Shown here in pieces: positions 9,361 to 50,141 of a stretch of DNA of 64,000 nt (its first letter is position 1; the number at the start of each line of letters is the position of its first letter). The DNA is from an uncultured Eubacteriales bacterium (GTDB taxonomy: Bacteria > Bacillota > Clostridia > Christensenellales > CAG-1252), in the NCBI GenBank assembly GCA_902797685.1, contig CADBTQ010000089.1:2187-66186 (forward strand), read 5' to 3'. A program made the translations under genes and the position numbers. The notes under the pieces are model-generated. The model was not told the origin of the DNA. It searched no databases and saw only the letters and a list, made by a program, of their open reading frames with translations.

Positions 9361-9390
9361 AAAACAAAAACACGCTGTTGCCAGCGTGTT
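9361..9390 (-). terminator. Rho-independent terminator ending the giant-gene cluster
   Basis: Perfect 8-bp stem acacgctg/cagcgtgt with a 4-nt loop, followed on the minus strand by TTTTTGTTTT. Confidence 0.7.
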
Positions 9391-9403
9391 TTGTCTCGTC
9401 GGA

Positions 9404-13409: not shown

Positions 13410-15002
13410 TTAGGTCAAATAGGTCTGCGCATACAAAGTGAGATCTTTGTCAAACGCATACGTGTTTTCCAACACTTTGACCGACGAGGGGAATAGGTTA
13501 CGTGCGGTCATTCCCGAGTAGTCGGTAGTCCAACCGTAGAACTTATAAGATCCGGACACATCGGTCACCTCGAGGTAGCGACTGCTTGCCGTATTGAGAT
13601 AATCGCCCCAGGTCTCCCCTTCGTACACGGTGAAACTGAACGTTGAGCCGCCTCTACCCGACTTATTAGTCACATTGTCGCCGTCATGGAAGGCGATATC
13701 CACGTAACGGATATTGGGAGTAGCCGGCGCCAAATTAAGAGTGATCGTGTAGGCGCGTCTCATCACGGCGTACAAACTCACGTCTTGGGTGATCACGGTT
13801 GACGTATCGAACAACAAATCCTCGTCTTCCCACGTGGCGTTGGGATCGGTGGACCAGCCCACCAAAGCGTAACCGTTTTGGGAATAGCTCGGCGCGGTAT
13901 CCGCCGTGTCAAAAGGCACGTAGTGCGTGGATATCACGGTCGAATCGTCCATACCGTAGTACGTGACGGCGGGATATTGCGTCCATCCCGCATAGAGTGT
14001 GACGTCGCCTTTGAGGTGCTCGTCCACGTAACAGGCGGGATCGACGGGCTCGGTGCATTCGGGATCGAAAAACCATCCGTCAAATCGGTATCCGACTTCT
14101 TGCGCAGTCGAGTTGCTCCGATCCGCTTGGGGCAAATCGAGGTATTCCCATCCAAACACTTTTTGGGTGGTAGTATTCACCAAATTGCCGCCATCTCTGA
14201 TCTTGCCGCCGTTGCCGTCGTAAGTGATCACGTGCATGGGATTGCTTTCGAAACGCATATTGAACACGATCTTGCTGTACATATACGACGGATCGCTCAA
14301 AGGCGTAGCGTCTTCCTCGTCCAGATCCGCGTGGGAATACTGCAGCTCACGGTAGTTTTGCTCCGATTGGAAGATGATCTGCATGCCGAACGTATACTGA
14401 TAGCCGTCTTGCATCGTAAACGTTTGGTAGACGGGAACTTCCCGTCCGTCCACCGTCTCCGTCGTATAATCCGCCGATACCAAGTAGCCGTTTTCGGGCA
14501 AGTAGATCAAGGGCTCCTCGCTATAATCTTGCACCTCGCCCGAGGGAGAGACGATCGAAAGCATATAGATACGAATGGTAAAGTACTCAAACAAGTTGTA
14601 ATCCTTGTCGTCCGGTTTGGTCACGGCGGTATACTCCTCTATTCGTTGCGTACCGTCCTCGTTGAAACCTGCCAACACGACGTCCACTTTGTTGATGTTG
14701 ACGCACATATAACCCGATTCGCTCAAATGGGCGTCCAAACCCACGGGAGTGTATTCGACCACGTACGGCGCGTCCAAGCCGGTCGCTTGCGTGCCCTTTT
14801 GACCAAAATAACGATTGTCTTCTACGGGAGTACCCGAAAAGTCGATCGTCAAATTGGCGGAGTCCGCCGCGCTGATCACGATACCGTTGGTACCGACGTG
14901 CTGCGCACCCGCCGCGCTAAACCAAGCCAAAGAGACCGCCACGATCAAAATCGTGATGACTGCAATCAATACTATGCTCAATATCAGTTTGTTTCTTGTC
15001 AT
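13410..15002 (-). CDS. Secreted or anchored protein (530 aa): TM + LAWFS signature, unassigned ~250-aa domain, C-terminal Listeria-Bacteroides repeats
   Basis: MTRNKLILSIVLIAVITILIVAVSLAWFSAAG... C-terminal repeats include GYRFDGWFFD...LYAGW, GYALVGWSTD...LYAVM and YKFYGWTTD...LYAQ. Its ATG overlaps the stop of the giant ORF (ATGA), and GAGG lies 10 nt upstream. Confidence 0.8.
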   Translation of the reverse strand: MTRNKLILSIVLIAVITILIVAVSLAWFSAAGAQHVGTNGIVISAADSANLTIDFSGTPVEDNRYFGQKGTQATGLDAPYVVEYTPVGLDAHLSESGYMCVNINKVDVVLAGFNEDGTQRIEEYTAVTKPDDKDYNLFEYFTIRIYMLSIVSPSGEVQDYSEEPLIYLPENGYLVSADYTTETVDGREVPVYQTFTMQDGYQYTFGMQIIFQSEQNYRELQYSHADLDEEDATPLSDPSYMYSKIVFNMRFESNPMHVITYDGNGGKIRDGGNLVNTTTQKVFGWEYLDLPQADRSNSTAQEVGYRFDGWFFDPECTEPVDPACYVDEHLKGDVTLYAGWTQYPAVTYYGMDDSTVISTHYVPFDTADTAPSYSQNGYALVGWSTDPNATWEDEDLLFDTSTVITQDVSLYAVMRRAYTITLNLAPATPNIRYVDIAFHDGDNVTNKSGRGGSTFSFTVYEGETWGDYLNTASSRYLEVTDVSGSYKFYGWTTDYSGMTARNLFPSSVKVLENTYAFDKDLTLYAQTYLT

Positions 15003-18000
15003 TGATTTCTCGCCTCAACTTGCAGGGGTTGTTGATCCGGCCCAAAGGTAGCCAGATAGGGTCCCCTTCTGTAACACAATAGTTCATAACCGCCTTGGAC
15101 GTAATCCGTTACCCAGTAACGGCTCGTCATCAAGTCGGACACGGAGGGACAAATGATCCGTCCCGCTTGCTGATAACTAAGCCAAGGATAAAGTTGCAAC
15201 AACGAAAGCTGACGATAGTTGGCGACGACGACGAGATTGTCGCTCGAACCGTAATCCGCCGCTTTGTCAAACATATCGTACTCACCCAATCCAAGGTCTT
15301 GGTCTTTGACGACGTATTGAGCCAAATCGCTTATAACGGCTCTCCATGCGTCGCTATAAAGCATATCGGTATACGAGGTGCCGTACGCGGTGCCCGAGAC
15401 GCCTACGTCGTTGGACAAACCTTTTGCGGGAGCGGTCGTAGACGTCGACAGCACGCCGTCCGCCAAGTAACCGACCGAGGACGGATCGACGGCTAAAGCA
15501 TACGCCCCGTCCAGTCCGCCGATAAGACCGCCGCCCGTGGACAACGGATCTTTGCCGGACAAACTGACGGCAGCGATCACGCGAGCGTTCTGAACGCCGA
15601 TACCGTCGAAGTCGTCGCTAAGAACCAATTTGCCGATGAGACCGCCCGCATATTGGGTGGAAGTATCTTCCCCACCGCCCAATGCGTCGACGTATCCCGC
15701 ATAGCGTACCGACCTCAGCTCGGTATCGATCGCTTCGCCGATGAGACCGCCCGCTTTGGCACCGTCGCCTTCGACGCTGGCAATAGCGACCGTCACGCGG
15801 CCGACAGCGGAGCTGTTGGTCACGGTCGCGTCTACCGCCAGTCCGATCAAACTACCGCCGTGCAGACCGCCCGAGATGTAAACTATGGAATTGTACAAAC
15901 GCACTCCGTCGACATAGCCGCCGACTCTCACTTCGTCACCGTTTTCATCCGTCTCAACGGCGCCTACCATGCGCCCGATCAAGCCGGCATAAGAGTTGTT
16001 GCTGATAACGGTCAAATCGTAAATGCCGTACCCTTGTCCGTAATAGTTGCCGTCCGTAATACCGGGTTCGGTAACGATGATCAGGTTGCCGTCCTCTACC
16101 ATGGTGATGTCGTTGAGTTGATAGAAACTCGGCACCCGTCCGACCGGATCCTCTTCGTCGTGAGCCGCGTTGTACAAGCCCGTCATATCCGCGCCCATGC
16201 GCGCCACGTCTTCCGCCGTACGAACGGCGAATACGTATCCGTTGGATTGCGCGTACTCGGTATTGCCCAAACTCTCGTCATAGATCAGCAAGTGCGTGAC
16301 TTGCAAAGTGGGCATATTGATAACGTAGTTAGTACTATTACGCGAAGTTCGCCAGTCCTCTTTGGTACCGACGCCGTTGTCGGTAACGTAAACGTCCAAA
16401 CCGCTATCTTCATAATCGAGGTTCTTGATAGAGACCAATTCACCCTTGAGTTTGAGATAACGGTTGCCCGAATTGAGCGCCCACCATTTGTCGTTGTCGA
16501 CTACGATATTGCACTCCGAACCAACGATATAATCGCCGTTGCTATCCATAAACCCGTCCGCTTGCAGCAAAGCGATAAAGTCCGCTTCGGTCATATAATC
16601 CACGTAGGTCTCTTCGCTCGTCCCCTTGGAGATGGAAGACACCTCGACGGGCTTGGGAGCGTTTTGCTGCCAGCTTTGCAATACGTTGGAGTACTCGATC
16701 AACAAAGTTCTCGGCACGATGTGGTATTGCGAATCGCACAATTCGCCGTTGGCGTCTTTGTACTGCAATAGCTTGACATTGCCGCCCATTTCGTTCTCGA
16801 CCCCGGTATTGAGGTCGACCACGCCGTCGACCGCCAAATCGCGGGTATAGACGCTCACGACGTAGTTTTGGTTGCCGTTGGCGTCGTACACGGTGATCTC
16901 GTAAGCGCCCGTGACGGGATTGGGTTGCAGGACGTAGTAGTGCGGGCGCTCGGCGTCGGACGCGTCGATGACGTTGAGCACCATTTCGTTGGCGTGATTG
17001 TAGCCAGCCAATGTGACGTTGAGCACCAAGTGGTTGCCCTCCAACAAGCTAGTCAACGGGAACGCCACGGGCGCACCCATGTCGGTCACGATCTTGCCGT
17101 CGGCGTCCATCGTTTGGACCAAGCCGCTCAAAACGTCTTTCCACACCTCTTGTTCGCGCACGTTCTCCACCACGCGAGTCATTCGATCGGAGATCGTCGA
17201 ATCCTCGCCCACGAAAGCGAACGCACTCGTCTTGCCATCGTAATACTTTCCGTTATCCCCTTCGCCGAAATAAGCGGTAATGGGCACGGGTACGATCTCA
17301 GCGTCAATACGCGTTACGCCTGCGGTACCGCTGGATTCGTCGATATCACTGATATAGTTGGCGGTGATCAACGACGTCCACATGATGTTGGCATAGTTGG
17401 CGTCGACCGCCGCCGTGATCTCGCCCAAACTATTATAAATACGGATCACGCTGGGATTCATCCTGATCAAATTATCACCGAGCGCAACAAAATCGGCTTT
17501 GGCGGTGATCGCGAAATCGTGTACGCTTTGACGTCTGGACTCCTCGTAAGCACTCAACGCGGTAACAAAGGTATCGCCCAACGACTGCTTGATCGAGTCG
17601 GAAGACATGTCGTAGTACACGCGAGCGGCAACCAAATTATCGCGGACCCAGTCGGACGAGATATTGGCAGCGGTAATGCCCGACAAATAATCTTGCAATG
17701 CCGTGGCATAACAAGCTTCCGCCGTCGTCAGATCGGCATTAGTGATACCGAGTTGATCGGCGACGTAGCGTGCCGCATACAAGGTCATCGCCGTCTCGAA
17801 GTTCAACTGGAATACCTGCGCATATTCTGCGATCGGATTTGCGTACACGTCCCAGTCGGATTGAGTGGGGACCAACGACAAAGATTCGCTGAGCGCTTGT
17901 TGATAACGAGAGTAGTTGGACACGTCGTTTTTACCGTCCGCACTCAATCGCGCATACCTCATGCCGACGTAGTGGATCAACCCGAGATCCGAAAGCGTTA

Positions 18001-45000: not shown

Positions 45001-48000
45001 CGTAATAGGCGCAGCCCGTCAACGTCACGGTATCGAAGTCCACCGTGTCTTTGGTACTCGTGCCGGGCAGGTTGAGCAGTCCGCTGATGGTCATCTTTTT
45101 GCCCATCAGTCCCTTGTTGTACACGAATTCGCTGCCCGAGGCAAAATAGTTGACGTCAAAATTGTACATCAACGTCTTGGGCGTCACCGTCCAAGTGATC
45201 GGCTTGCTTTGGTAAGCGGATTGCGCCAAAGAGCCGGCCAACACGTAGTTACTATCGGGTTTGAGATAGATGACCACGCTATAGGAGCCGACGTCCATCT
45301 TTTTGAGGTGGAGCGTATTGGTAGAAGACGTCACGGTAGCGGGCGTGTACGTATTGCCGCTGATACGCCCCAGCTGCTTGGTGCAGGCACTATCGTAATA
45401 GGCAGTCATAGCACCCGCGCCCGACAGCAAGCCCGTCACGGTCACCGTATGGCCCCGCCAATCCGCGGTGTAATCGAACGCTTCGCCGTTTTGACCCGTC
45501 AAAGACAACGTCACCGACTTGGGGGTGATACGGAACAAACCGTAGACGTAACCCGTGCCGTTGGCGATACCGATATCCGTGCCGTAGAGGGTATTGTATT
45601 CGTTGATATATTGCGCCGTATTGTCACCGGTGGAACGGGGACCCGCCGCAAAAGAAAACACGCCCGTCGAGGTCTCTTCGGGAGTGACGGCGGGATAACT
45701 GTTGTGCGTCAGGCTGCCGCCTTGCTGCAAACCGCTCACGTCAAAATTGTAGTTATTTTTATACACCGCCAACAAATTGTTGACGTTGTAGGTCACCGAA
45801 TAAAACCCGGTATCTTCGCCCGAGGTACGGGACAGCACGTTGGCGCTGGCAAAACCGCCCGTATCGACCGCGCTCACGTAGGTGCCGTTTTCCACCAAAC
45901 CCACGACGCTGACCGCCCAAGTCGAATTGGTCGCACTCGCCTGGGTCTTGTAAGGATCGGTAGCGACGGAGGAGGGGTCGGTAAAGCTGACCACCCGCTT
46001 GACGTAACTGGCAGAATCGTTTTCGGCGCCCGAACCGTCCGCCTTGCCGTACTCTTTGCTGACGCTCCATACGTAGATATCCGCGTCAATGGGGGTGATG
46101 GTATAGGTGATACTGGTGGTCTCCAACTTTTGCTTGTTGGTAGAGGTGGTATCCACCCAATAGTAATTGGTATTGGCGGTATCCGCCGTGCCGGAGCAGG
46201 TCAACAGTACGCTGGTGATGGCGTACGTCCCCGCGTTGCGGATTTCGGTGCTAAAACCGGTACCCGAGGTAAAGCCGCTGTAGCGGGGGGTATACGAGTG
46301 ACCCGGCGAACCCAGTATCAGTCCCTTGGTAGTACCGTAGTAGCTGACCCCCTTGTTGTATTCGGCATTAAACGCCCCCGTCTCGAATCCGTCGGCGACC
46401 GACACGGTCAAGAGGGCGATCAAACCGCTGGTAGTACCGTCGTACCGGCGGCTGTTGGTGCCAAACCTCGCCGTCAACCCGATGGGATTGATGGTCGGTT
46501 GGATGTTGATGGAAGGCGTGCCGTTGGTGACCAAGGTCACGTTACCGCTGGTGTAGGACACCGAGGTCGTCAAGGTGTAAGCGGTCGCCAACTTGGCGAT
46601 CTTGGTAGTCCCGATATAGTAATAGCACGCCTCGTCCACGTCAAACAGAGCGTGAGGGTATTGGGTGTTGTTTTGGAAAGAGACCGCGTTACCGCCGTTT
46701 TTCCAAGTCCAGGTGATATCGCTCGTATTGGCGATGGCGTGGCTGAAAGTCACGCAGTTGTCGAGGTAAAAAGGCGTGCCGTACGATACTTGGGTATCCG
46801 CATACGCCGTCTTGGTGACGGTGGCGGCTTTCAAGGTGTGTTTGAGATAATAAACCGTAGAGGACTGCGTCGTATTGGCGGCTATAGACGAGGACGTACT
46901 ACCCGAACACGTAGCCGCCGTATACCAAGCGTTGGTGTCAAAACCCGCTATGGGGTTAAACTGGGTCAGATCGTCCTGGTAGTTGCTGTTGCGCCCGCCC
47001 GGATTGGCGTTCATGCTCGACAGAGTCAAGCCGCCCGTGTAGGTGCGCACGTAGGGCGCGCGCACCAATTTGAAAGAAGCGGTCCCGCTGTTGGCACCGA
47101 AGTAGACGTCCCAAGCGTTGACTTGGTAGTTTGCCTCTTTCCAAATGGCGTAATAGGTCGTGCCCGTCTGACTGGCGGCGCCGGACACGGGCGTGCCGCT
47201 CGTGCTGGCGCTCCAACCGACGAAGTAATACCCCGTCCTCGTCCAATAGGTCGCCGTAGGCATGGTAAAGCTTTGGGTGGAACTCGTCTTATAGAAGGTG
47301 ACGGCGCTACCCGACGCACCGTTGGGGTTGAATGTTAACGTTTGTTTATTCGTGGTCGTGCCTCGTGTGATATTAAACGTCGGCGTTACCGAGGTCGTAC
47401 TCCAATGATATGAACCCGTGCCTTTATCGTGCCCATCGGTTTTGTACTGACCAACCAGTTTTAATGTAATCGAAGAGACCGTTCCGCCCGACTTACCAAT
47501 AGTAGCGGTTTTGGAAGAAGAGCTAGATTGAGTAGCGTACTTTGTACCCGAATTACCACCGCCCCACCAATTGGACCCTACTTTCGCTTCCACTTGATTT
47601 AGGCTGAATAACGTAGTATCCGACCCGCCGACATTGTAATACACAACACCCTTTGAATATGCGTAATAATCCGAGGTGTGACCGCCGGATGCGGACATAT
47701 AGCTGTCATTGTTGCCGTATACCGTTCCGATAGTGACGTTCAAAGAATAACCGTAATTAGAACTCGTGTTTGTCCAGTGTCGTAATGCACTGGGAACGGT
47801 AATACTTGTTGACTTGGCGGAACGATCTTTCCAACTGTTTGCGTCCGACTTCTCCGAATAGCTGTCGCTCATCGCGCTAAACGAGCCGGTAAAATCTACA
47901 TACTGAGCATATAGCGTTGTATTCGCCGAAACGTTAGAACCGGTAAACTCCATGATACGAGTTCCGCCGCTCGTCGCCGTATACCAACCGGAGAAAATCT

Positions 48001-50059
48001 TGTTACCGATCTTGAGATACGTCGGAGAGGGGAAATAGGTGTAACTGAGAGCGACACCGCTTGTCACGACCACGGTGCCTGCGGTACCGCTGGTATTGAC
48101 CGAAGAACTGCTGTTACTGCACTTGAATGTCAACGTGTATTGGGTAACGCTTTGGCGCCAGCTGCTCCAAATATAGAAGTTGCCGCAAACGTAGTTGAAC
48201 GTCGCCACACGACCCGATATGGTGTTGGCTTCCACCGTGTAACCCGCCATAGGCCCGGAAGTATAGTACAAGTGCACCGAATCGAGAGTATAAGACTGAG
48301 TGCCTTCCAAGGGACCGCCCTTGCGACCCGTGATCGCATTGTAAGTGACGGTCACTTTTTGGTAGTGAGTATCCGTCTCGACAGCCGACGAAATGGTAAA
48401 AGTCGCGCCGTTAGCGGCAAAGTTTGAGGAGTTGGCTGTGGGCAAGGGCTTGACGTTGGCGCCGCCGTTGAGATAGTAGTAAGCGTCCGTATAAGTACCG
48501 CTGGTTTGGCTGTTTTGAATGGCGATCGCCACGTATTTGGCGGTCAAAGTCAAATTGCCCGTCACCTTGCTGCCCTCGATGGTGCCGCCGACCGTAAAGT
48601 CGCCGCTGTAAATGCCCGTTGCCGTCCAGCCCGAGAAGGAGCCGGGACTTGAGAACAAGGTGGTACCGATGGGGGTTTTGAGATCGTTGTCGTAGTAGAT
48701 GGTACGGGTAAGGGTCTTGTTGCTATTGGAGCGGGTATAACCCGTTACGGCGGCAAACGCCAATTCGGGCGAGTTCATCGTAAGGGTGTAACTCTTGGGG
48801 GTGTATCCCGTCCAGATAAAGCATCCGCCCTGCAATTTGCCGTTGCCCATGGTGGCGGGAGCCGACCCGCTGAACGTGGGGGCGGTGCTACTGCCACCGA
48901 AGTTGGAGGGGGTCAGTTTGATCACGCCCGCGGTGGTGTAATAACTTGAGGTGCTGCTGTAGCCCAAAGAGGGGTTGCTCCCCGCAAAATACACTCTCCC
49001 CAACCCGTTGTAGTTGGCGATGGAGGACGTAAAGCCCAAGTAAATGTTGTTGACGTTGGTGCTATCCGTCGTACCGCTGTACGAGCCGAACTTAAAGCGC
49101 AACGTATTCCAAGACGATTCGTTGGAGAGATTGGAAGTAACGGCGGTACGAGAGGTAAGGGAAGATGCGGTCACGTTGTATTGCAAACCCGCTCTCACGG
49201 TACTCCACTTGGCGATAGCGTCGCCCGAAGTATTGTGTTGGATACCCACGTTGACGTAAGGATCGTCTTTGAGGGTGAATTCCAAGCGGAAGTCGCTCCA
49301 AGTCAAGCGCAGATTACGAGAAGCAGGCCACCACACACCTTCGATCTTGTTGTAAGTCTGCACGCAGAAATAGTAGGTGCCGCTTGCATTGATCGTGCCG
49401 AAACTGCCCGAGGACAAAGTATGAGACAAAGTATTGGCGCCCGCATCCTTGATCATGGTCGCGTCGGGATGGGCACCCTGCCCTTGGGTAGACGACGTAG
49501 CGGAAGTGGAGGTACCGGAAGTGATGTTGACGCAACAATAAGTGGACGTATCGTCACCGTTGAAACAGTTGAACGAGCCGACTAATTTGATATTGTCTAC
49601 TATGCCTTGCGCCATCAAGTCTCGAATACCGGCGGGAACTCGGAAATAGGTGGTGGTATACAAATAGCCGTTGGTGGTATGGAAAGCGCTGTCGTCGTCG
49701 ATTTTGAAGCCGTTGCCGTCGGAAGAAATACAATTACGGCTATCGGTAACGTCGGAATCGTTGTCCTTGTGGAGAAAACTGGTCAAGCTGTAAAACGTAT
49801 GGTTGCTATTGACGCCTTGCAAGTAGCTGTTGTACAAATACAGCGTAAACGTTCTGTTGACGTTGGACGAGGCGATTTGGTTGTGAAGGTAACCGTAACT
49901 GTACGAAGCGGATTTGGACGCGTCGGCGCTGCCCTGCGAAGTCAAGCCGAGGGTCAAACCAAGTAAAATACCAAAAAGAAGAACACCGACGATCGCCCAA
50001 AGAGCGGCGGTCTTGACGGCGGTGATATTGCGTTTGAAAGTAGCAGTGTTGTGTTGCAT
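14999..50059 (-). CDS. Giant modular cell-surface protein, 11,686 aa (N-terminal membrane anchor, Ig-like MBG/YDG-type repeat arrays, CBM-like modules, rubredoxin-like knuckle, helical region, GLUG domain)
   Basis: Uninterrupted 35,061-nt frame with AAGGAG (50066-50071) 6 nt before ATG 50059. Composition is a consistent T/S/G/N/Y/A/V-rich beta-repeat type. The recurring module signature is K..LT(V/L)....(Y/V)(D/N)G..(H/Q)....V.G......L......NAG(T/S)Y.V.....NY.L, and specific motifs are listed as sub-features. Confidence 0.9.
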   Translation of the reverse strand: MQHNTATFKRNITAVKTAALWAIVGVLLFGILLGLTLGLTSQGSADASKSASYSYGYLHNQIASSNVNRTFTLYLYNSYLQGVNSNHTFYSLTSFLHKDNDSDVTDSRNCISSDGNGFKIDDDSAFHTTNGYLYTTTYFRVPAGIRDLMAQGIVDNIKLVGSFNCFNGDDTSTYCCVNITSGTSTSATSSTQGQGAHPDATMIKDAGANTLSHTLSSGSFGTINASGTYYFCVQTYNKIEGVWWPASRNLRLTWSDFRLEFTLKDDPYVNVGIQHNTSGDAIAKWSTVRAGLQYNVTASSLTSRTAVTSNLSNESSWNTLRFKFGSYSGTTDSTNVNNIYLGFTSSIANYNGLGRVYFAGSNPSLGYSSTSSYYTTAGVIKLTPSNFGGSSTAPTFSGSAPATMGNGKLQGGCFIWTGYTPKSYTLTMNSPELAFAAVTGYTRSNSNKTLTRTIYYDNDLKTPIGTTLFSSPGSFSGWTATGIYSGDFTVGGTIEGSKVTGNLTLTAKYVAIAIQNSQTSGTYTDAYYYLNGGANVKPLPTANSSNFAANGATFTISSAVETDTHYQKVTVTYNAITGRKGGPLEGTQSYTLDSVHLYYTSGPMAGYTVEANTISGRVATFNYVCGNFYIWSSWRQSVTQYTLTFKCSNSSSSVNTSGTAGTVVVTSGVALSYTYFPSPTYLKIGNKIFSGWYTATSGGTRIMEFTGSNVSANTTLYAQYVDFTGSFSAMSDSYSEKSDANSWKDRSAKSTSITVPSALRHWTNTSSNYGYSLNVTIGTVYGNNDSYMSASGGHTSDYYAYSKGVVYYNVGGSDTTLFSLNQVEAKVGSNWWGGGNSGTKYATQSSSSSKTATIGKSGGTVSSITLKLVGQYKTDGHDKGTGSYHWSTTSVTPTFNITRGTTTNKQTLTFNPNGASGSAVTFYKTSSTQSFTMPTATYWTRTGYYFVGWSASTSGTPVSGAASQTGTTYYAIWKEANYQVNAWDVYFGANSGTASFKLVRAPYVRTYTGGLTLSSMNANPGGRNSNYQDDLTQFNPIAGFDTNAWYTAATCSGSTSSSIAANTTQSSTVYYLKHTLKAATVTKTAYADTQVSYGTPFYLDNCVTFSHAIANTSDITWTWKNGGNAVSFQNNTQYPHALFDVDEACYYYIGTTKIAKLATAYTLTTSVSYTSGNVTLVTNGTPSINIQPTINPIGLTARFGTNSRRYDGTTSGLIALLTVSVADGFETGAFNAEYNKGVSYYGTTKGLILGSPGHSYTPRYSGFTSGTGFSTEIRNAGTYAITSVLLTCSGTADTANTNYYWVDTTSTNKQKLETTSITYTITPIDADIYVWSVSKEYGKADGSGAENDSASYVKRVVSFTDPSSVATDPYKTQASATNSTWAVSVVGLVENGTYVSAVDTGGFASANVLSRTSGEDTGFYSVTYNVNNLLAVYKNNYNFDVSGLQQGGSLTHNSYPAVTPEETSTGVFSFAAGPRSTGDNTAQYINEYNTLYGTDIGIANGTGYVYGLFRITPKSVTLSLTGQNGEAFDYTADWRGHTVTVTGLLSGAGAMTAYYDSACTKQLGRISGNTYTPATVTSSTNTLHLKKMDVGSYSVVIYLKPDSNYVLAGSLAQSAYQSKPITWTVTPKTLMYNFDVNYFASGSEFVYNKGLMGKKMTISGLLNLPGTSTKDTVDFDTVTLTGCAYYGTTTTTSSALNKRTSASSRGTRLGTSGYYFLGTNVATYKVALSNPMGTNFSGDDGLLFASGATAKGESASNYTGDAASAEWKIEPKPLTISWARGYCDSTTYTTVTSNQSGLDGDGNHLGFQYVAKKADGTQYTQGLRATVSGVFAGDSVTLTAGNNSTPNPLTISGAAGLVVEFYKTTCATYVCSFTAVSNPNYTLPSNNMLEFDIYQNVAKITGWTVTYLNSSSQTVTWGTYNGTETIALPYGGVTYTLAVSAVAYDDNSGRSLSVGDLGTITLTNNTGIDAKDYSISASLAEDSGFVLSNPTRAWSITPKTVTLSAWSDYFASGSSYTYNADPMGKKATVTVKHFASTKANIASESTNAIYVRDSQSFVLTTSAGTMQYARPGANATGTLTVRVVGVNAGTYDATVSLSSANYRMTSVKPGSFTIATRTLTLTMDSLTVDYDGEQHEVTIRINGLQGSEKAKLTITNTGSTFVTKEIASNSTQVTNNTAYKFGATNAGTYTVNVTALNAIVGGQARKENYTLTAKSATLTINKKALTASWSAANTLTYTGAGQGRTLTVTGMVAGENLTLTNTASAYTDSGKGTALSGSGLTPTAASLTLASGAVSRSQAYTAIWAGYYEVAIDLDNMPNYTLGGSKSANWTIGKRTLTLTMANVAVDYDGQAHNVTVSIGGLQGSEKAKLTITNTGSTFVTKEIASNSTQVTNNTAYKFGATNAGTYTVNVTALNAIVGGQARKENYNLTAKSATLTINKRQLTLSWSDDVTLTYNAALQTGRTLTVTGAIPSNALGLTSTVASYTDTTRNTSLSNTGITPSGSNSYTADSAGKITINYQAGKAGYYTISLAVNDTANYTLSGSATSNFSIAKAALTLTMSDKTVTYTGAQQNLSVTVAGLVGGNKVRLTYSANKAFTSNGWTNNDTWLDNDAYQFGATNVGTYKLTVSTVYGVSGTYADVNDYSFAQTEATLTINAKEITASWVTASPSYDGSLKTIATLTLSGIVAGESVTWNTASTTKYYGENTTMTNTGLTPTGNKTETAPDSGTISQTYQAGKAGNYSLTVSLVGMSNYTLKGTATASATFYRSLLTLTWQANNNLTSGNAYLTKDGRVGKGSYVYDGSQNGVKVTVGGIVAGETIKLSTTSTYPTNGIANNSTAVSNTSYVFSAVNAQATAYTVWVTGINSATGKTYSDAKNYAYDYRSNLLKTSGGTTALLTSGQSVTDSANKIQTTISARSLTASMSSVAATYNGTVQTYANLTLTNAVAGDTIYITSTVTATAPSGGALSGHGATAPVSGLAAANGNVTIAYQAAKAGSYKVVVALNGMSNYTMDTLTFNDGAIARATLTLTWASLDGNFDSVSSGVMTKTVTYDGAQHGVTLTVTGLQASEQVQLTLGANNYTTQGVQSNNTWMSEGVAKTLSSKDHVDGSYDVYVSAIYAAQGTDYAAATNYTLTNSSNKYKQNATSTALNVATGSVRARTIINKKALTSSWSGADTQTYTAQGLGKTLTVSGIVSGESVNMSLTASAYTDSGKATRLDNSGLSPTTGYALSSAANTKAHTAVKAGYYEVSVSLSDNNYTMSETTASWTIAARTISLSWSGKGSCDYDGNNHGVTVTISDIQGTDKVTFAVTTTYAGNGLSAAVGNGAYNFTSKNKGVYSVSSVEISSVSGTYASNANYTLVANLGASNANTQYTINQRQLTLSFSTPATTPTYNGSLQTIATLTVSNAVPGETINLTNTTTAKVSNGGSNLAGSGITPTGNLSLKANDSGLATQNYQAGKAGYYGASVALNGMSNYKLSASSVTSSNFSLGKATVTVTFTGTGSTNYDGTSHGVTATIGGLQNGESVSFNTSSTLAYATLGIDNGTTKYGNGARVFGSVNANDQAYNVTISSIKAVSSGTYAGVTNYTLSVSGNSNYTINKRPVTVEWMPAGTLTYNGSEQGISVTVSDLVKTDKVGIAFSADGSNPSGTGTFTSSGNATSVSKTFKAVNANVGGGHYTATLTGFNSTNYKFKDGSTLSGTWTISPKIVDLTWTTDTATPAFANFKAEYNGSDRYVYAAVSSSSLVGTDTVTLTPSSFAGRAVGTYTATVTGISNTNYQLPATTSKSWEITPKQVNASWSKVGKTYTGTVQNPATLTLTGLAAGDSVRLSVSGSGYTIGTNSAIAVSGLTPASGATIDVASNSNTYSFGGVRAADYKVTIALTSGNVLSNANYVLAGTTQYTYTISQQAITITWSALNDDSGVQYDGEAHGVVARVTGIQNAETVRLSFSNNNYLNKGIVHNSTNVQNNASYAFSSINADSYAVTGIALASATYTSSSDANTRNCINVANYTLTSNESGSAYVIVKRILSVSDKGTASFGYDGAVHTVIATPGNIVGTDRVAFTYANSGIVTNSATNAGTYTLTINGCEPSFNYRIATSGDAGYQASDWSYQWTISARTLTVGWSTASGLVYNAQAQGIKVTVGNLVQTDKITINFTSNGTSPSGSSFVTSGSSTTMAVDFKGVNAGSYTSKLTSIASTNNGSTNYTLPSNQGNWSIAQKPVGFDWNYSGTPFEYFYGAWTVAVSNVTGLVDDATISVSYTTHNLARYVENGQWVYNVTKGSNTATEVGSYTAQVASISGAGSANYCLPASVSARQLNWRINPRPITISWQDTAALTYNGQGQGPTVILTGIIEGDTVGFLGTVTGMTAANDAVDSGNIHFTYDTKSTNAGFDTYTYTFVYTSQAGNNYRATIPSLDEDVGVSKNYYTLADNNLKTYSIAQKEVGINWVKDGLGTWSGFQTTYNGKTRSVTPTITSSTIVSGDSVSIAYTGNTGKNARAYTVTVSSVNNANYCLPAVVSQDWTIKQCVIGATWKWKGSDLSSSTIRYDGTEQVVTAVATGAVSGENVTFSYSNNTKMHQGSYTARATISGDFRTNYAFDSNGAQYVETAWTILPRVIEQSNVSWGTTEFEYDHNSHTVTATFDNQISGDVITVTYETTGTTTVTVDNKSVTAKYANTATNRDVYVAKIKSISNTYGDYTLASNFQTTWRITPKLLTVAWSAASATYDGAAHGVTLTVTGIATGDTVRLTYTNTGKSPSSAYLTYSQASSSTLTQAFNAVKAGSYEAVVTGLTDYNEGNENYYVNTNKGTWTIEQATITLTWSLLGTNSGTYDGTSQGLNLAVAGIAAHETVRFTLASTNNNEATTITNAATNSSYTFTSVNHGDYTVSINGITSVAALSGHANSADVAASNYKLTSSGSNAYHIAQRVISLEWNDDDSHGEMAYVYFYNHQGMSAPYAYAYNGSGNYVAWPGVAMNRIGDTNWYGALIDSSYSTVIFSDNGSNQYGDWSYSVDYPTYFWGVGLPQAPGSTTVYYYNANGWSRPSAYAWCQADVNYETKTTDFGSYPGVTMTAIGGGWYSATINSVANRIQFVDASNTSNNSGDLVFVKDAPYYNGKWSDTKPAQADQVTVHFYTETMATPYVYAWNGSSNNGWPGVAMTSEGDGWYKATLSTAYTQVIFNNNGADQTGDIGFGTGSFTYYKNNAWWATDPDLNTTSAKSGYVYDGNEHGVVVTLGNILASDIANITFSYLNDGTNTPAKTVGATYTSGGLTLQTCDYSFLAINAKNTAYTALITAIASNPGGNYALPNTGLQGEWEIAKRVLTVEWNYDTTNGAPQDGSWTYDASQHGVVLTVGNILTGDQPSITVNNTGSVPQNGRYVFSTTSQSGGAYSVNTTFGAVDYSATPYMVTVIGVSDDNYALPATGLSAEWSIDQKEVILVWQMDGGNTFSKTYDGNPHTVTATVSNACSGDTVNVTVSGGVNTNAKDTAYTATAAALSNGNYKLPATVTRTYNVTRRNVTAVLGNTSVEYKAAAVTIGDLNVSFTNAVTGDTIAVATDNLSSVNAINVGNYNVRLTINNTNYNLTNANTNLPFSITPFVIAKADMSWEYFTSNGSGVENSGSRSSIEWPVSIGFASGIYHNFEASMSGVFASADVDFGYTYFGFCTCGHYHPTSSNYPSPYYTFDQDHQWFVFNDNGTVGFHSFGPNHAGTYYVVLSLTGSDAGNFVFENTTVYGNDYGMVDPTYFAGSNVVYPKSSTVVTAAPNGYAFKFVVAQTPGGFVTDDSADVDKVFDGNPYTDYPTIVGYTPQQMTIYIDGVAYTYAQFLDNTVTREYRSTSYNIVYTVGGGTSTYTCDNVNGTSQAVERVLTVSKRLIVITNTASTAWSRDYDTTTVYSDYTVGALDTTNNTGIVDAGKATLSATYDSALAGNRTLTFALSGADRLNYLFELHAGATTTVSATVAGEIFRKQLIVTATDYDKVYDRQSTYTSYTYTGVLADAPVTLSASYDSFVAGSRTITFVVSGTQSANYEVVVNGGTPGVLTLAATIYRKGIHLTMGSTSKTYDGTNLVEFDYDSSAILTGDTLNITALYDNKNAGTGKTITYSLGSTGDAVNYKFGDDGNASELTNSTITLTNGVITQRELSLAWTDARAHSVYDGNEQSVTLFVDNIVAGDVLSLGGVDGSTSVTGGNRVSGGTTVYGITYTYTYVNRGNYTRTITVSDANYVISSDATYSWSIAQRGLKITWTGDDSGAWVGYTTVYNAQTRTLTPSVGKVDGVAQSGLVAGDDLDAAVSGNTALHAGDSYQATYTINNNNYYVASGATLGWSIDKATITGKYFADSTVIYDTTSHAVTVDTTSALGDVLTVTYTITPQGGATTSGANANAATDVLWVNGEVAGYTITATLSHQDYVTYNVPNTADHSRYNAVLTITPADIVVSMDDNSTVYNARVQYVSLNEAASPSATTVLTQLGESVSVSYALSVTRGTAEVGVTNGAKNVGVYVVTAEVGEDNSNYNTLTLTKTLTIATAEIKTANGDSITMSPDTLAVDYNKQTHSLSVNVADGTHTDLYDLDNTVISVSYKINGVDGNSAVNAGTYTIVATVKATVNGVESTNYESKVITGTLTINKATMRNTTGTGSGLFYLVGTSYDYDSRVRYLNVNTQNATLLQDAGVNAIAVRPSLSAGYVSGTDEAEITYTYVYTNPVGTVTNTHSLLHAGTYRISAVLHNDNYVDYVLSEVTVTVNAIQIESVYLNLPELTTNADGTNPRHYDYTNSYYSVGVSRSADIINTSIVSQITLTIGGANTSDLASVTYTYEYAAPGSNSFADRGAFDNATAKDAGSYRITATITAIGEAVNDYEQKVLTNTMIIWPVDITSIRVSSVSGVYTGESKDYAVTDNQTQFEENVNIRYSVSSASGSSDGIVYGNGKVSMLHADVYTVTVYINENAASNTIAYNSNYFAKTIAGTLTITPATISGISFAGQTVTYDGSDYFLNLVTSTNANAISRASLGDTVTVSPSTNTSFAEQAAVSYTVGDSAFAGALHAGTYEITATVSHRDYNAYSATATLTVSKATMWAAVSGNEQARTFGLIEESGSVFQKVYDTHTLHVNVNVNGATQTYLDDNGSFVSSFSIRPSGMALSDGLALGDTASVTLLANGSSFAGIKNAGEYALTAILHHEVGGYSDYEDVTLTGTVIVDKVRFDGSLGHLPALYLNGSTRIYDADRHYVGVNTIDEYLDSATATVALLSGDGTAKIRYYYNTVDNDTYPNTFAGAINAGTYYVQALTEIEDNDVAQNYEFWTSVATLQIQKLRFTDEDGHLGQLYLVGNERAYDAISHYVGVNRSNAYLDDMVSVIHYESLGLTVSVSYTASYNGGEAQAFTGATDAGTYDVTAHIAEGDNYVAWTSSARLTINKLHFAEGQPAKGYVGTLYFGDVTVAYDKLSHYVGVSKSDESVDARVDAITYFDGNVSLPVVYQQGGVAFDGTSVAGTYTITASIAATVNNDAWTDTATLLVKQLVFAVDPSTGAADVANGYLGGLYIVDHTVSYDTNTYYTGVSRTDGWSNSLASSFSYVLAGGTIDVGVTYTYTQNGVDKGAFTGVIDAGTYVVTAHVASPADGGWQAWSQSATLTIERARFGNGQLTSLYFVGNEFKYDMLMHNAYVNTADAYSSTPLSEVSLLGTDGVATITYYYNVDGGDVYENVFTGAVNSRTYYLRAVVGYANDRNANNYEAWSRDASLVISPLQYVAGEIGDLRLNSGETLFDASTHYLGVTEGSAWLDQLVSGITVQLGSNSLVIPVSYVYNTDGTSTYGSSFVGQRDAGLYYVKAVIEADVNGNYGAWSDTATLQIDALKWNGQSGHLDQLYFVGNEGNSLLYDGARHYVGVNTVNAYNNEYVTTLYYVYDQERHGFVIGNGSNYDLAVPVAYTYYKGALGSGNYDDAFQYCQDAGVYNIRASIVEGINYEGWTDTATFTIDKLQWIDDAGHLGRLYLTGTTRTYDATTHYVGVSHTADSYVDQNVTELTYQYGDLTLQIPVEYRYHVGEGNYDNAFDGALHSATYSIKAIVAETNNYDGWEGEVELTIQKIKWTGAQHDFDQLYFVSGESYYDMLTHYVGVNTDNAFNPSLLTSLSYLVEQDGVSLLSNGDPTANVVVPVVYTYNTDGSDNYVETFGGISNCGKVYVRASIAASEDYEGWEGFATFEVKKLTFSGASIDVSAGKLGNLYFVGTTTAYDMLSHTIGVSYSNAYTNTHPLSLTYSLAGGELVIAINYTYYVGASGSYDSDFTSATNAGVYHVKATIASTANYDGFEGEATLTISKLQFALDPETSDVNIAKGYLGVKYFVGTEFAYDGLTHYMSVNDANAYLDQQPTTLQYVLAGGTLSIDVAYTYFLGATGTYSDPFVSATDAGVYNVRAEVVGTDNYEGWVKTATLRIRKLAWVEGELGALYYTGADLIFDNAEHFAGVSRSEDDWVDDYINELTIETGSVSLRIPVAYTVGGADFVPTKNAGDYSITATIAETTNYEGWTDTVTLHIEKLHWTADSLGELYLVGKTLPYDALTHYATISRNLNEWNDTAPEASLYYTVDPHGITYVGNANGTFVIPVSYTYATAENGAFDHTFAGLTNAGKVWVKATIAADVNYDGFEKVVVLEITKLVFAFKDGEINAAEGYLGSLSFNGPDSDQVYDGLTHYVGVNNRTSAWLDSTVETLTYTLASGRQLTIGIDYTVSKNGSAYVAMSGVKDVGTYTIRAEITADANGNYDSWVATAPYRILPFATSLVWHKPAGNGMTYNGYDQTSQVYASLTKVSAEGGAQTLPMSVYLSSTLSWDYSTLSDPSFVATSAEYVKVDGASVESLIGKQPSSLYHAGEYVVIACFDDGNYDLSNSWELIQCITIEKATVDLYLVGQTVTYDGATHYVSAYDQEEWHDAPLVSDVSAYMQGDDSATISYTFNTDNGNLYENAFVGLKNAGTNYVRAEIVMDESIRDDYEPWIKYCELTIEKRRLTFTSTSELGAWTKVYDTTIDYSAYTVTGIAPLDANDLSVSVSFATKTAGTSKPMVVTMDTDVAGLVNNYVYDELYGTILPKQIKLIDGIDWSRVYDGTDRVRPTFNNTSIDLNDREYYVEGYRTFEGDSVSLSAHYDSKNVREVTEVVFGFVGIDGVNYQLVTTVTATASKPLLIPLVSTIKWVDLDLTYNGYARDMSSLTANTANGVQPYTVTYAFVDMLGDDANDISLSNNGLFLFDLRFQRNGVSTTYRDAGEYEVLASTDSRLSSWTIASGEYEGIAAGTYKTIGDNYLLLDLTKTATIAKYSTSVEWDRPNSDGLVYNGQERAVSAWFELLGEDRDVAAYGADANGVVHMSVFAQDYDYTDGNGNVIAMGIEMLKDGVRVAVMRNAGTYSMYVQVPNAIVKNYDLQNNQFTNVVMQKASIDSYFAFQYTGELDLGSYYLGNYYYFFAVDPSSGEDYKQLILSRQNSDDRSYTAYTRKYQYDDIEVEMTYVNGEYSYFGPDDSYNSGNNGITNAGSYAITAVVFETDNYEGWSRTINVRLSKGVIDTFDLADYLESDGDPLVYKGSNYGLYVASKSPSDPSGSHFSTSMNTMYLPDGRVADIRYYVDELSYTGSLAIVGGSISATPVLHGNQYVDTDGNDVLSVSEKIAAGVERTMPSVKQAGYYLVSAIVWNDPNYENWEGSALLRIAKYNTRVLWLAKSPITGEFISLDDVAFTFSGYDQYDNISAYFAAFAEDAQSGRVYLKVLAEPTAEYADGYAANNGQTNELRLAGDYTLSCDFDSSIDDLDYIERNYNIAYSDKTLTINKFTVALHWQVDGIDYDPANPPVYDGIEHSVQALGVGVDYYALRNGSVVPSIVYIKLETDEYDENGVERWVAIDAGDNYRAKVMSIMSAVDNTAYYDSEGNAKAYGSCQFDYNYQLPSEGKLLSWVIARRPLSVDLTVSSSQILKKLYDGVSTFEIDSQNSTFRFEDSGETTTPRNGKFARLYNEVAVYTVKGIDGYDTFSYVIKGIVERDTYSSHKCPDCGYVYREGDYSNYSYEDDSATGYAIGSLQANAHWEDLPDNYQCPNCKRQAALRAEALIDALYDLSIVETENNAVMEFLVLADTIDTFVRRGETLFADGDYANAYIAFSAARKLRDHMDESLDHVLDTTKAELYYYLGASVGKLLADLTNKSLTSMDYSRVHTVEQLYQGLDDDYQVTLPLTDVLGNTVTGVSGTAKEVALSMGAGEYSALTEAISTVNDLILTDGVSVFTGYVNDLVNTVGGELTMQALLDVASLEALSRALSAASIEPDPSVSSTFAATKATVQSSLRELFSRLSTITSLQNGRLQSVVAKNELYQFYCTIIDTVQDGLSANWTSEALVTKLQSNDEAMRGLVEGSNPYFEAVTKATEQSAIAARIALDNAFSEGNADNYYHYLDKLDGYLYDQAVERLIGDATYKGYDGGSTIATDTYMYNVGTFDYLVERYNGLSAAAKDYVTADVNTIQTYLANAFTTLPTADAVYYLLLSFEYDSFGEMGILVSRSVRMIYDTAVSNGVENIGNVSPSRLTSIEERIASEYSGGYTSSLSLSPDRTYAVTYEMDGHEVASVALVVYFYQMMDAPERALVNANDRNYNTCVTAYGLHFVADFSHVILGDQFRMENARNVVDSLPTDVRELYVDSEYLDQIEVKIVEKYIDMIGNPVTLSDLGLIHYVGMRYARLSADGKNDVSNYSRYQQALSESLSLVPTQSDWDVYANPIAEYAQVFQLNFETAMTLYAARYVADQLGITNADLTTAEACYATALQDYLSGITAANISSDWVRDNLVAARVYYDMSSDSIKQSLGDTFVTALSAYEESRRQSVHDFAITAKADFVALGDNLIRMNPSVIRIYNSLGEITAAVDANYANIMWTSLITANYISDIDESSGTAGVTRIDAEIVPVPITAYFGEGDNGKYYDGKTSAFAFVGEDSTISDRMTRVVENVREQEVWKDVLSGLVQTMDADGKIVTDMGAPVAFPLTSLLEGNHLVLNVTLAGYNHANEMVLNVIDASDAERPHYYVLQPNPVTGAYEITVYDANGNQNYVVSVYTRDLAVDGVVDLNTGVENEMGGNVKLLQYKDANGELCDSQYHIVPRTLLIEYSNVLQSWQQNAPKPVEVSSISKGTSEETYVDYMTEADFIALLQADGFMDSNGDYIVGSECNIVVDNDKWWALNSGNRYLKLKGELVSIKNLDYEDSGLDVYVTDNGVGTKEDWRTSRNSTNYVINMPTLQVTHLLIYDESLGNTEYAQSNGYVFAVRTAEDVARMGADMTGLYNAAHDEEDPVGRVPSFYQLNDITMVEDGNLIIVTEPGITDGNYYGQGYGIYDLTVISNNSYAGLIGRMVGAVETDENGDEVRVGGYVDGVRLYNSIVYISGGLHGGSLIGLAVDATVTNSSAVGRVTVAIASVEGDGAKAGGLIGEAIDTELRSVRYAGYVDALGGGEDTSTQYAGGLIGKLVLSDDFDGIGVQNARVIAAVSLSGKDPLSTGGGLIGGLDGAYALAVDPSSVGYLADGVLSTSTTAPAKGLSNDVGVSGTAYGTSYTDMLYSDAWRAVISDLAQYVVKDQDLGLGEYDMFDKAADYGSSDNLVVVANYRQLSLLQLYPWLSYQQAGRIICPSVSDLMTSRYWVTDYVQGGYELLCYRRGPYLATFGPDQQPLQVEARNQ
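15497..16030 (-). other. Giant protein: C-terminal GLUG-motif region
   Basis: Repeated (A/G)GL(I/V)G units: YAGLIGRMVG, HGGSLIGLAV, KAGGLIGEAI, YAGGLIGKLV, TGGGLIGGLDG. Confidence 0.65.
17300..19840 (-). other. Giant protein: ~850-aa non-repetitive, helix-rich region
   Basis: Composition switches abruptly to A/L/E/D/Y-rich sequence without the Ig-like signature (…AALRAEALIDALYDLSIVETENNAVMEFLVLADTIDTFVRRGE… to …ITAAVDANYANIMWTSLITANYISDID). I recognised no motif. Confidence 0.6.
19841..19993 (-). other. Giant protein: rubredoxin-like Cys4 knuckle pair
   Basis: HKCPDCGYVYREGDYSNYSYEDDSATGYAIGSLQANAHWEDLPDNYQCPNCKR matches both rubredoxin knuckles (CxxCGY.Y ... W.D(L/I)PD.(W/Y).CP.C). The inter-knuckle loop is about 12 residues longer than in canonical rubredoxins. 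Confidence 0.7.
23760..28477 (-). repeat. Giant protein: sub-array of 14 divergent ~100-115-aa modules with a shared signature
   Basis: I counted 14 units beginning (I/V)xK(L/V)x(F/W)...G.LY(F/L).G....YD...HY.GV and ending ...AG(T/V)Y.(V/I).A.I....NY..W...ATL.I. Confidence 0.7.
34421..35230 (-). other. Giant protein: three tandem starch-binding-like (CBM25/26-type by motif) beta-sandwich modules
   Basis: MAYVYFYNHQGMSAPYAYAYNGSGNYVAWPGVAMNRIGDTNWYGALI...VIFSDNG; TTVYYYNANGWSRPSAYAW...YPGVTMTAIGGGWYSATI...IQFVD; QVTVHFYTETMATPYVYAWNGSSNNGWPGVAMTSEGDGWYKATL...VIFNNNGADQT. Confidence 0.65.
42741..42978 (-). repeat. Intragenic near-identical repeat, copy A (~238 nt)
   Basis: Matches 43395..43632 at about 94-95% by eye (~13 mismatches), offset exactly 654 nt (218 codons). 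It encodes GLQGSEKAKLTITNTGSTFVTKEIASNSTQVTNNTAYKFGATNAGTYTVNVTALNAIVGGQARKENY in both copies. Confidence 0.9.
43395..43632 (-). repeat. Intragenic near-identical repeat, copy B
   Basis: See 42741..42978. Confidence 0.9.
49940..50011 (-). other. Giant protein: single N-terminal transmembrane anchor
   Basis: K9/R10/K16 followed by TAALWAIVGVLLFGILLGLTLGL. The positive-inside rule predicts N-in/C-out. I saw no C-terminal LPXTG, SLH or dockerin motif. Confidence 0.7.
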
Positions 50060-50123
50060 ACGTTACTCCTTGTCTCTTTATCCAAGCGCCGAGACAGTGC
50101 GCAAGTATATACACGCGTGTGCG

Positions 50124-50141
50124 TGATACAGTTTCTGTATA
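50124..50141. promoter_or_regulatory. Operator-like palindrome (T)GATACA-GTTTC-TGTATA(A), ~65 nt upstream of the giant-gene ATG
   Basis: Same TATACA-N5-TGTATA architecture as the two sites at 51041-51057 and 51118-51136. Confidence 0.45.

Follow-up and report, generated by a model that had tools for sequence, protein, structure and literature searches.

What does a single reading frame of 11,686 codons encode, and what might its product do for the cell? This question is raised by the 64,000-nucleotide stretch of contig CADBTQ010000089.1 analysed here (the window; assembly GCA_902797685.1), in which one open reading frame (ORF) is by far the largest feature. A preliminary description, made from the letters of the DNA, had proposed a giant modular surface protein, and this proposal holds. 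We consider it probable that the gene encodes a giant fibrillar cell-surface adhesin of about 0.25–0.3 µm, binding alpha-glucan, of an uncultured Clostridia-class bacterium. The coordinates of all features are compiled in Table 1.

Integrity of the giant gene

The frame lies on the minus strand, which the preliminary description did not specify, and runs uninterrupted over 35,061 nt or 55% of the window to a single terminal stop, as had been stated. The ribosome-binding site described earlier (AAGGAG, 6 nt, ATG) was read again at the expected position. From the base composition, the probability of passing 11,686 codons without a stop is ca. 1e-205; the other two sense frames contain 451 and 321 stops over the same interval, and the non-shadow frames overall 321–697. 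The GC content at third codon positions (GC3) amounts to 0.66–0.74 in each 5-kb slice, inside the range of the neighbouring genes (0.60–0.82). The sole sizeable DNA repeat in the ORF is a pair of 285 nt with 91% identity (42740–43024 and 43394–43678, 654 nt apart), and Tandem Repeats Finder reported one trivial 43-nt hit and no meaningful tandem array. As repeats are nearly lacking at the DNA level, the concern about repeat collapse voiced earlier finds no support, and the uniform GC3 together with the scarcity of repeats argues against assembly collapse. Judged by these properties of its sequence, the ORF represents one real gene.

Alternatively, what looks like one gene could be a decaying pseudogene or result from faulty assembly, e.g. 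through repeat collapse, repeat expansion or chimera formation. The window comes from one assembled sequence, and relatives are frequently fragmented; giant genes arriving broken in assemblies are a known obstacle. The stop-free frame, its uniform codon-position GC, the low mutual resemblance of modules that are 13–45% identical, the presence of just one 285-nt repeat and the colinearity of ca. 4,700 residues from about residue 6,940 with independent assemblies make this explanation practically negligible.

The plus strand opposite the giant gene carries numerous long ORFs (up to 1,334 residues; 15653–47338). These are shadow ORFs and not genes, and arise because the in-register antisense frame contains only 62 stops and has open runs of up to 1,380 codons.

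A stalk of divergent all-beta modules

A module profile was built from a self-search seeded with one repeat (68 module hits; jackhmmer/hmmsearch). It detects 66 modules at an independent E-value (i-E) below 1e-3, which comprise 6,992 residues or 60% of the protein. The modules are ca. 105 residues long, of the all-beta MBG/YDG type and highly divergent, with 13–45% identity to the seed module and the consensus NY..TI..YDG..G..V..AGxY, which fits the MBG/YDG family pattern. Two types can be distinguished, an N-terminal type A (34 modules) and a C-terminal type B (24 modules), the mean identity between them being 18.5%. When modules were scanned singly against Pfam, MBG_2, MBG and MBG_3 were each found in six and YDG in four of them (E ≤ 1), the best value being 2.8e-10 for YDG. 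Pfam matches are also found towards the end of the array, to YDG at residues 9078–9162 (28.1 bits, cut-off 25), beginning just upstream of the looser modules, and to MBG_3 at about residues 9506–9534; summed over one tile, MBG_3 scores 35.7 bits. The assignment to MBG/YDG-type modules made before is right at the superfamily level, with MBG, MBG_2, MBG_3 and YDG as top families and an all-beta tandem rod as the model.

The AlphaFold model of two consecutive modules, calculated from an alignment of paralogous modules, reached a predicted local distance difference test score (pLDDT) of 92. Foldseek related this model to tandem Ig-like, Fn3, cadherin, titin and Sap surface-layer domains; a PDB sequence search with the module profile gave nothing significant. 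An all-beta tandem rod is thus predicted with confidence as the fold of the stalk. An Ig-like domain is typically ca. 4 nm long, so that at least 66 modules would add up to the rod length given above. In the literature, MBG counts among the stalk domains of fibrillar adhesins (PMC9210967), and with 66 modules and a tandem rod model the protein possesses the several tandem repeat domains by which Monzon et al. define the stalk of such adhesins. Their definition further asks for export with surface retention and for a binding domain; the candidates here are the one N-terminal hydrophobic segment for the former, and the three CBM26 modules and the GLUG-like beta-solenoid for the latter.

The two copies of the 285-nt repeat are separated by the length of two modules, which indicates that the array has grown recently by doubling of a unit of two modules. 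Among type-A modules, similarity is also slightly higher at position i+2 (0.289) than at i+1 (0.243).

Carbohydrate-binding modules and the adjacent starch cluster

The stalk is interrupted at ca. 43% of the protein length by a block which the preliminary description had called a triple CBM-like block and which is identified here as three tandem CBM26 modules with a score of 120.5 bits. Its best PDB sequence match is Amy16 of R. bromii (9qf9, E 7e-7), and binding of starch or alpha-glucan can be expected at the family level. The block fits the gene cluster located directly upstream for starch uptake and breakdown by a GH13 enzyme, in which two further CBM26 proteins are encoded. In detail, this cluster contains a 515-residue protein that matches CBM26 weakly, an 805-residue lipoprotein with two CBM26 copies and Flg_new repeats, a solute-binding protein, two permeases, a secreted GH13+CBM48 enzyme and, as the final gene, a 675-residue MalK-type ATPase.

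The protein might alternatively be a general cell–cell or host adhesin whose ligand is unrelated to starch, the CBM26 modules being accessory and the adjacency of the starch cluster coincidental. Such a role would be in line with the composition of the conserved unit, which consists of the giant gene and its downstream partners and not of the upstream starch genes, with the BspA-type leucine-rich and Flg_new repeats of the partners, which are typical of adhesion, with the 1.3 kb of non-coding DNA, containing repeats and a terminator-like site, that lie between the starch cluster and the giant gene, and with the low resemblance of the CBM26 copies of the giant protein to those of the neighbours. 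However, three well-scoring CBM26 modules are kept intact in tandem within the stalk, and two CBM26 surface proteins, the GH13/CBM48 enzyme and a maltodextrin-type ATP-binding cassette importer are encoded directly upstream on the same strand. We regard a ligand unrelated to starch as possible, though rather unlikely, and prefer the assignment as an alpha-glucan-binding adhesin.

Within the non-coding DNA upstream of the giant gene, a 28-nt motif (GGTATGACGATGRAAAWGCGGATGAGAT) occurs in three exact or near-exact copies (50300–50327, 50627–50654 and 50817–50844) and nowhere else in the window, and no riboswitch or other Rfam family was detected in this 1.3-kb region. An ORF of 154 residues at 50377–50841, which spans two copies of the motif and belongs to no family, is probably spurious. 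The 515-residue ORF at the window edge (62438–63985) has no signal peptide and opens with a sequence resembling a GLUG domain (LSGVLDGDGHTLGNIVV); either a longer gene is cut here to its final part, or its start may have been chosen wrongly. A C-terminal extension of ca. 300 residues in the MalK-type ATPase is also found in a few metagenome-assembled genomes (MAGs) of Bacillota (loci L001, L002 and L019) with 44–46% identity.

The C-terminal end-piece

All four non-array inserts listed in the preliminary description were located, the helical one by composition and the GLUG one at a sub-cut-off score, while a further insert at about residues 5520–5860 had been missed. Neither Pfam nor the PDB (queried with residues 5500–6040) provided a match for it, and it is followed by two weak YDG-like modules (residues ca. 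5860–6020, i-E 0.01–0.02).

The end-piece begins with the rubredoxin-like knuckle, which was recognized previously and is matched by PF00301 at residues 10024–10075 with 30.8 bits (cut-off 23). Profile match and two CxxC pairs are both present, and these pairs are the only CxxC motifs of the entire protein. Instead of forming an Fe(Cys)4 centre with redox function, the site could equally hold structural zinc. The subsequent region (residues 10086–10930) shows the highest helix propensity and the lowest Gly+Pro content among all regions and has no match in Pfam or the PDB; the designation as a helical region of ca. 850 residues agrees with this composition, which constitutes its sole basis.

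Beyond a beta-rich region, a GLUG-like beta-solenoid was modelled by AlphaFold with pLDDT values of 70–92, reached only at about residues 11,310–11,530. The best Foldseek hit of the solenoid is an IgA1 protease (7uvl_P, E 5.5e-4), and a search of the end-piece profile against the PDB revealed nothing significant. The Pfam family Glug (PF07581) scores 13.9 bits (E 0.075) in the giant protein and is below the cut-off of 20.5, such that the GLUG domain claimed earlier does not hold for this protein by score; it gains support from the fold match and from the relatives P0009 (20.8 bits) and P0005. The likeness to the IgA1-protease beta-helix supports a "works like" relationship and not GLUG membership.

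The giant protein revealed neither a catalytic domain nor a catalytic motif; scans with Pfam, NCBIfam and motifs gave no HExxH and no peptidase, toxin, nuclease or other enzyme signature, so that a role as protease or toxin is unsupported. Toxin-delivery systems usually rely on exported proteins of giant size that are repetitive and end in a C-terminal part of their own, and a polymorphic toxin on a long stalk, used in contact-dependent competition, would match this format. Yet the C-terminal end is conserved and not variable among the relatives, the scans for HExxH and for families of toxins, peptidases or nucleases were negative, and the downstream genes specify exported surface proteins instead of small cytoplasmic immunity proteins, all of which renders toxin delivery extremely improbable.

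Relatives of the giant protein

Searches with a section of the array retrieved fragments from other Clostridia MAGs, one of them colinear with residues 6966–8752 at 47% identity. An exhaustive HMMER search with the last 1,200 residues provided eight cluster representatives, all unnamed or annotated as "hypothetical protein". A word-indexed search with the C-terminal 1,787 residues and a genome scan with the end-piece returned nothing, and a genome scan with the MalK-like neighbour revealed no giant gene in synteny, its matches not exceeding 73% identity over a portion of the sequence.

Colinear homologues of the giant ORF were found in loci L081 and L083–L086, and the colinearity with these independent assemblies, which differ in GC content, covers the ca. 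4,700 residues between about residue 6,940 and the C-terminus. The relatives display the same order of type-B modules, CxxC...CxxC knuckle, long non-repeat and probably helical region, beta region, GLUG-like repeats and tail, and counterparts of residues 10086–10930 are present in the proteins P0005–P0008. The four knuckle cysteines are kept in five of five sequences spanning this junction, and their position at this junction is the same in L083, L084, L085 and L086. Through its array and end-piece, the protein belongs to a small, hitherto unnamed family of giants in uncultured Clostridia.

None of the seven related loci (L081, L083–L088) contains an intact complete gene. The copies are cut by contig ends in L081 (GC 42%), cut by a contig end in L084 (48%) and in L085 (54%, with a 10-N gap), run off the recovered locus in L083 (39%, with a 100-N gap) or off its start in L086 (49%), and are shattered by 1x coverage in L087. 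The copy in L088 (36%), a distant relative, has a single in-frame TAG. The window gene is the only complete copy of the family found.

In L088, the called gene of 6,435 residues is followed by the in-frame TAG and an end-piece ORF of 555 residues, and the knuckle and the helical region are absent. Both ORFs lie in the same frame, one TAG and 12 codons apart (9962–10001); the TAG could be a sequencing error, the mark of a pseudogene or a stop that is read through. In P0006 (L084), at least six copies of a motif of ca. 35 residues (..GDTIPAGTVL..EQYY.L...D..F) are scattered over the end-piece, at residues ca. 1740–3400 of this protein, and one copy inserted between the CxxC pairs accounts for a knuckle spacing of 150 residues instead of 45.

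Export, anchoring and orientation

The giant protein has one hydrophobic segment, apparent in 19-residue windows starting at residues 11–24, with a core at residues 17–39. It is the sole hydropathy signal above 1.6, and scanning of the whole protein revealed no second hydrophobic stretch. A C-terminal LPxTG followed by a hydrophobic stretch was not found either, LPxTG being present only at residues 5308 and 5422. The earlier statement of one N-terminal transmembrane helix and no C-terminal anchor is correct in that one segment and no C-terminal LPxTG signal were found, but N-terminal anchoring is not established, as A45-D46-A47 follows. The segment may act as a signal-anchor or be a Sec signal that is cleaved off. 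The net charge is near zero over the N-terminal 4,900 residues and -4 to -9 per 100 residues from about residue 5,500 on; a neutral N-terminal and an acidic C-terminal half are compatible with a position of the N-terminus near the negatively charged wall.

The region following the signal was not mentioned in the preliminary description except for Listeria–Bacteroides repeats. These are borne out by a Flg_new Pfam match at residues 641–719, whereas the List_Bact_rpt match (TIGR02543, residues 940–975) remains with 18.8 bits below the cut-off of 20.95. For the N-terminal 1,140 residues, neither a homologue (word-indexed search) nor a PDB relative was obtained, which leaves an unmatched region of ca. 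1,130 residues.

The same fibre might be handled in the opposite way: with its signal cleaved, it would either be shed as a matrix fibre or be held non-covalently via the C-terminal end-piece and the partners, the N-terminus pointing away from the cell. The A45-D46-A47 sequence past the hydrophobic segment, the conservation of the C-terminal end-piece compared with an N-terminal part of 1,140 residues without homologue, and the conserved adjacent partners, which have membrane helices at their N-termini and include a lipoprotein, are in accordance with this arrangement. It has a parallel in the A. kunkeei giants (PMC12863079), in which a signal peptide and internal repeats are combined with a conserved C-terminus as the wall-binding part. 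On the other hand, signal peptides seldom have a hydrophobic core as long as 23 residues, the C-terminal half is acidic with -6 to -9 net charges per 100 residues while the wall-binding end of the A. kunkeei proteins is positive, and no SH3b, LysM, SLH or CW-binding domain was found. We consider this opposite orientation unlikely and favour an N-terminus held at the cell. Nothing in the giant protein points to the microbial GAIN-domain release mechanism (bioRxiv 10.64898/2026.05.12.724683).

Conserved partner genes

Four genes for surface proteins, termed partners A–D, follow the giant gene on the same strand and are probably co-transcribed with it, as indicated by an ATGA overlap and by the short distances between the genes. 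A terminator-like hairpin past partner D probably marks the end of the transcription unit. The overlap is formed by the ATG of partner A and the TGA of the giant gene. Homologues of partner A lie directly downstream of the giant gene in L084, L085, L086 (E 1e-28) and L088; an exact look-up of its 530 residues gave no record. The homologues of partners B (27% identity, 3e-20), C (30%, 7e-25) and D (28%, 3e-83) occupy the same positions in L086, which thus retains all four in the same order, and L088 has a weak homologue of partner C; L084, L085 and L088 keep at least partner A.

The only feature common to partners A–C, in the window as in L084–L086 and L088, is their beginning: a hydrophobic helix and, after it, [SA]-W-[FY] (SLAWFSA, SYAWYST, YAIWTA). 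This start may represent a shared targeting or processing signal, and it matched no known family. That these three proteins are paralogues was rejected, because hhalign aligned nothing but the N-terminal helix. TasA/camelysin- or SipW-type partners, suggested by the likeness of the SLAWF N-termini, were discarded in the absence of hits to PF12389 (Pfam, E ≤ 0.01) and TIGR04088 (NCBIfam, E ≤ 1).

In a far-reaching variant, the giant protein and its four partners would build a previously undescribed multi-protein surface appendage, with the partners as membrane base or coat of the fibre, the knuckle between stalk and end-piece as a metal- or redox-dependent hinge controlling exposure of the end-piece and the CBM26 modules holding starch particles. 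We judge this variant very unlikely as a whole.

A gene with an EAL domain, resembling cyclic di-GMP (c-di-GMP) phosphodiesterases, is located past the partners in L086 (17296–19056) and L087 (17913–18725) and is missing in the window; this hints that c-di-GMP controls the cluster in these two relatives.

Proposed mode of action

For the alpha-glucan-binding surface adhesin, we propose the following scenario. The polypeptide would be exported by the Sec system via its single N-terminal hydrophobic segment, and its N-terminus would be kept at the cell either as a signal-anchor or, after cleavage, by membrane-anchored partners. The tandem modules would form a rod, in the middle of which the CBM26 trio would hold starch or alpha-glucan, as expected from the family. 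The distal end-piece, conserved among the relatives, would provide a second functional end and most likely serves as a ligand-binding tip.

Several observations weigh against this scenario. When compared with the Pfam MBG/YDG families, no more than ca. one module in four attains even E ≤ 1, and most modules match nothing. The CBM26 copies are ca. 30% identical to those of the neighbouring proteins, which gives no hint of a recent common origin and makes recent exchange between them unlikely. No sequence of the related loci, which are mostly cut or gapped, matches the protein N-terminal of about residue 6,200, a point that concerns conservation of the CBM26 block, the N-terminus and the starch neighbourhood. 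Pfam and NCBIfam scans of the giant protein yielded no SH3b, LysM, SLH, CW-binding or sortase signal, and A45-D46-A47 directly after the hydrophobic segment is a candidate signal-peptidase site, so that the protein may be released. Finally, the helical character of residues 10086–10930 is derived from composition, and the AlphaFold model of the end-piece has an overall pLDDT of 46.6 and is poor beyond the beta-solenoid.

Comparison with known systems

With the Firmicutes MBG/YDG fibrillar adhesins (PF17883, PF18676, PF18887, PF18657; PMC9210967), the giant protein shares the single polypeptide with a putative export signal, the long tandem all-beta stalk of MBG/YDG type and putative non-repeat binding domains. 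In contrast to them, it lacks a C-terminal LPxTG or wall anchor, its sole hydrophobic segment is N-terminal, its conserved non-repeat end is C-terminal and its carbohydrate-binding modules are situated mid-stalk; moreover, most of its modules are under the Pfam thresholds, it is far longer and it is accompanied by four conserved partner genes. The proteins Giant1–5 of Apilactobacillus kunkeei (PMC12863079) are likewise located in a surface-protein gene cluster, but are composed of 3,000–8,000 residues, with repeats modelled mainly as parallel alpha-helices in Giant1–3, an N-terminal beta-solenoid and a positively charged, SH3b-like C-terminus proposed to bind the wall. They contain no CBM26, MBG/YDG array or rubredoxin knuckle.

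Starch-binding surface proteins and amylases of gut Firmicutes, such as the amylosome of Ruminococcus bromii (Amy16, 9qf9; PMC4611034, PMC5814915), are comparable in their CBM26 modules, the cell-surface context and the nearby genes for starch breakdown and uptake. However, Pfam tile scans detected no dockerin, cohesin or GH13 in the giant protein, and its CBM26 modules reside on a giant stalk and not on an enzyme or a small scaffold. The GLUG-bearing beta-helix of the streptococcal/Gemella IgA1 metalloproteases (7uvl, 7uvk, 6xja) is the best structural match of the end-piece solenoid with its repeated GGLIG-type turns, but the giant protein has no HExxH or peptidase domain, its Glug score is sub-cut-off and the sequence identity is ca. 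17%. The knuckle resembles rubredoxin (PF00301) in its two CxxC pairs and their flanks (C-P-x-C-G-Y...W-E-D-L-P-D-N-Y-x-C-P-x-C-K). Unlike rubredoxin, it is not a small cytoplasmic electron carrier but embedded in an exported protein of 11,686 residues, with a spacer of ca. 45 residues in the giant protein and 150 in one relative.

Giant repetitive adhesins are an established class. Proteins of more than 10,000 residues had been called rare in prokaryotes, and they are; they are nevertheless well documented in many phyla including the Firmicutes (10.1101/2023.11.21.568195; PMC11573180). New are the unnamed family with its conserved knuckle, helical region and beta-solenoid end-piece, the starch-binding modules in mid-stalk and the conserved set of four partner genes and, apparently, the reversed topology. 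No general principle is altered by the finding of this protein. The complete window sequence serves to annotate the fragments of relatives which are now termed "hypothetical protein", and the mid-fibre CBM26 modules beside a starch-uptake cluster suggest a tethering of a gut-type anaerobe to starch particles that is not based on an amylosome. The conserved metal knuckle, the end-piece without family and the partner genes offer handles for experiments.

Table 1. Features of the giant gene, its product and the adjacent DNA; positions refer to the window
Feature	Residues	Position	Strand	Remarks
Giant ORF	1–11,686	14999..50059	minus	11,686 codons + TGA stop; no N in window
Ribosome-binding site AAGGAG		50066..50071	minus	6-nt spacer, then ATG at 50059; read directly
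Signal region	1–47	49919..50059	minus	basic n-region, hydrophobic segment 17–39, then TSQGSADA; hydropathy, sequence
N-proximal region	48–1178	46526..49918	minus	Thr/Ser/Gly/Asn-rich; no family except Flg_new-type matches
Array A	1179–4892	35384..46525	minus	type-A modules (34 including three past CBM26 block); net charge near 0
CBM26, three in tandem	4940–5200	34460..35242	minus	PF16738, E 3.2e-35, 120.5 bits, cut-off 28.1
Three stalk modules	5196–5520	33500..34474	minus	type A; module search
Non-array insert	5521–6020	32000..33499	minus	ca. 340 residues (ca. 5520–5860) without family
Array B	6021–9083	22811..31999	minus	28 modules, 24 of type B; acidic; motif LYLVG..YD...HYVGV
Looser YDG/MBG_3-type modules	9084–9912	20324..22810	minus	module hits
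Rubredoxin-like knuckle	10010–10085	19805..20032	minus	C10025-x2-C ... C10070-x2-C
Probably alpha-helical region	10086–10930	17270..19804	minus	ca. 845 residues, no family; by composition
Beta-rich conserved region	10931–11330	16070..17269	minus	alignment; low-confidence AlphaFold model
GLUG-like beta-solenoid	11331–11540	15440..16069	minus	repeated GGLIG turns
Conserved C-terminal tail	11541–11686	15002..15439	minus	N[YFW]RQL...PWLSY; alignments
Partner A	530 residues	13410..15002	minus	N-terminal hydrophobic helix + SLAWF, Flg_new repeats
Partner B	230 residues	12647..13339	minus	N-terminal helix + YAWY; no family
Partner C	ca. 216 residues from likely ATG	11985..12635	minus	N-terminal helix + YAIW; no family; ORF listed from TTG 12680
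Partner D	859 residues	9404..11983	minus	putative lipoprotein (LVGC), five Flg_new repeats, BspA-type LRR_5
Terminator-like hairpin		9367..9392	minus	11-bp stem + T-run after partner D; consensus scan only
Non-coding gap		50060–51348		1.3 kb upstream of giant gene; terminator-like site
Starch/maltodextrin cluster		51349–63985	minus	same strand as giant gene, directly upstream

Other genes in the window

Past the hairpin, the window contains genes unrelated to the giant gene. They encode a DUF3592 membrane protein (5488–6507), an HTH_3+TPR regulator on the minus strand (4201–5253) and a protein of the DUF6994 family (2395–3147, E 4e-75).

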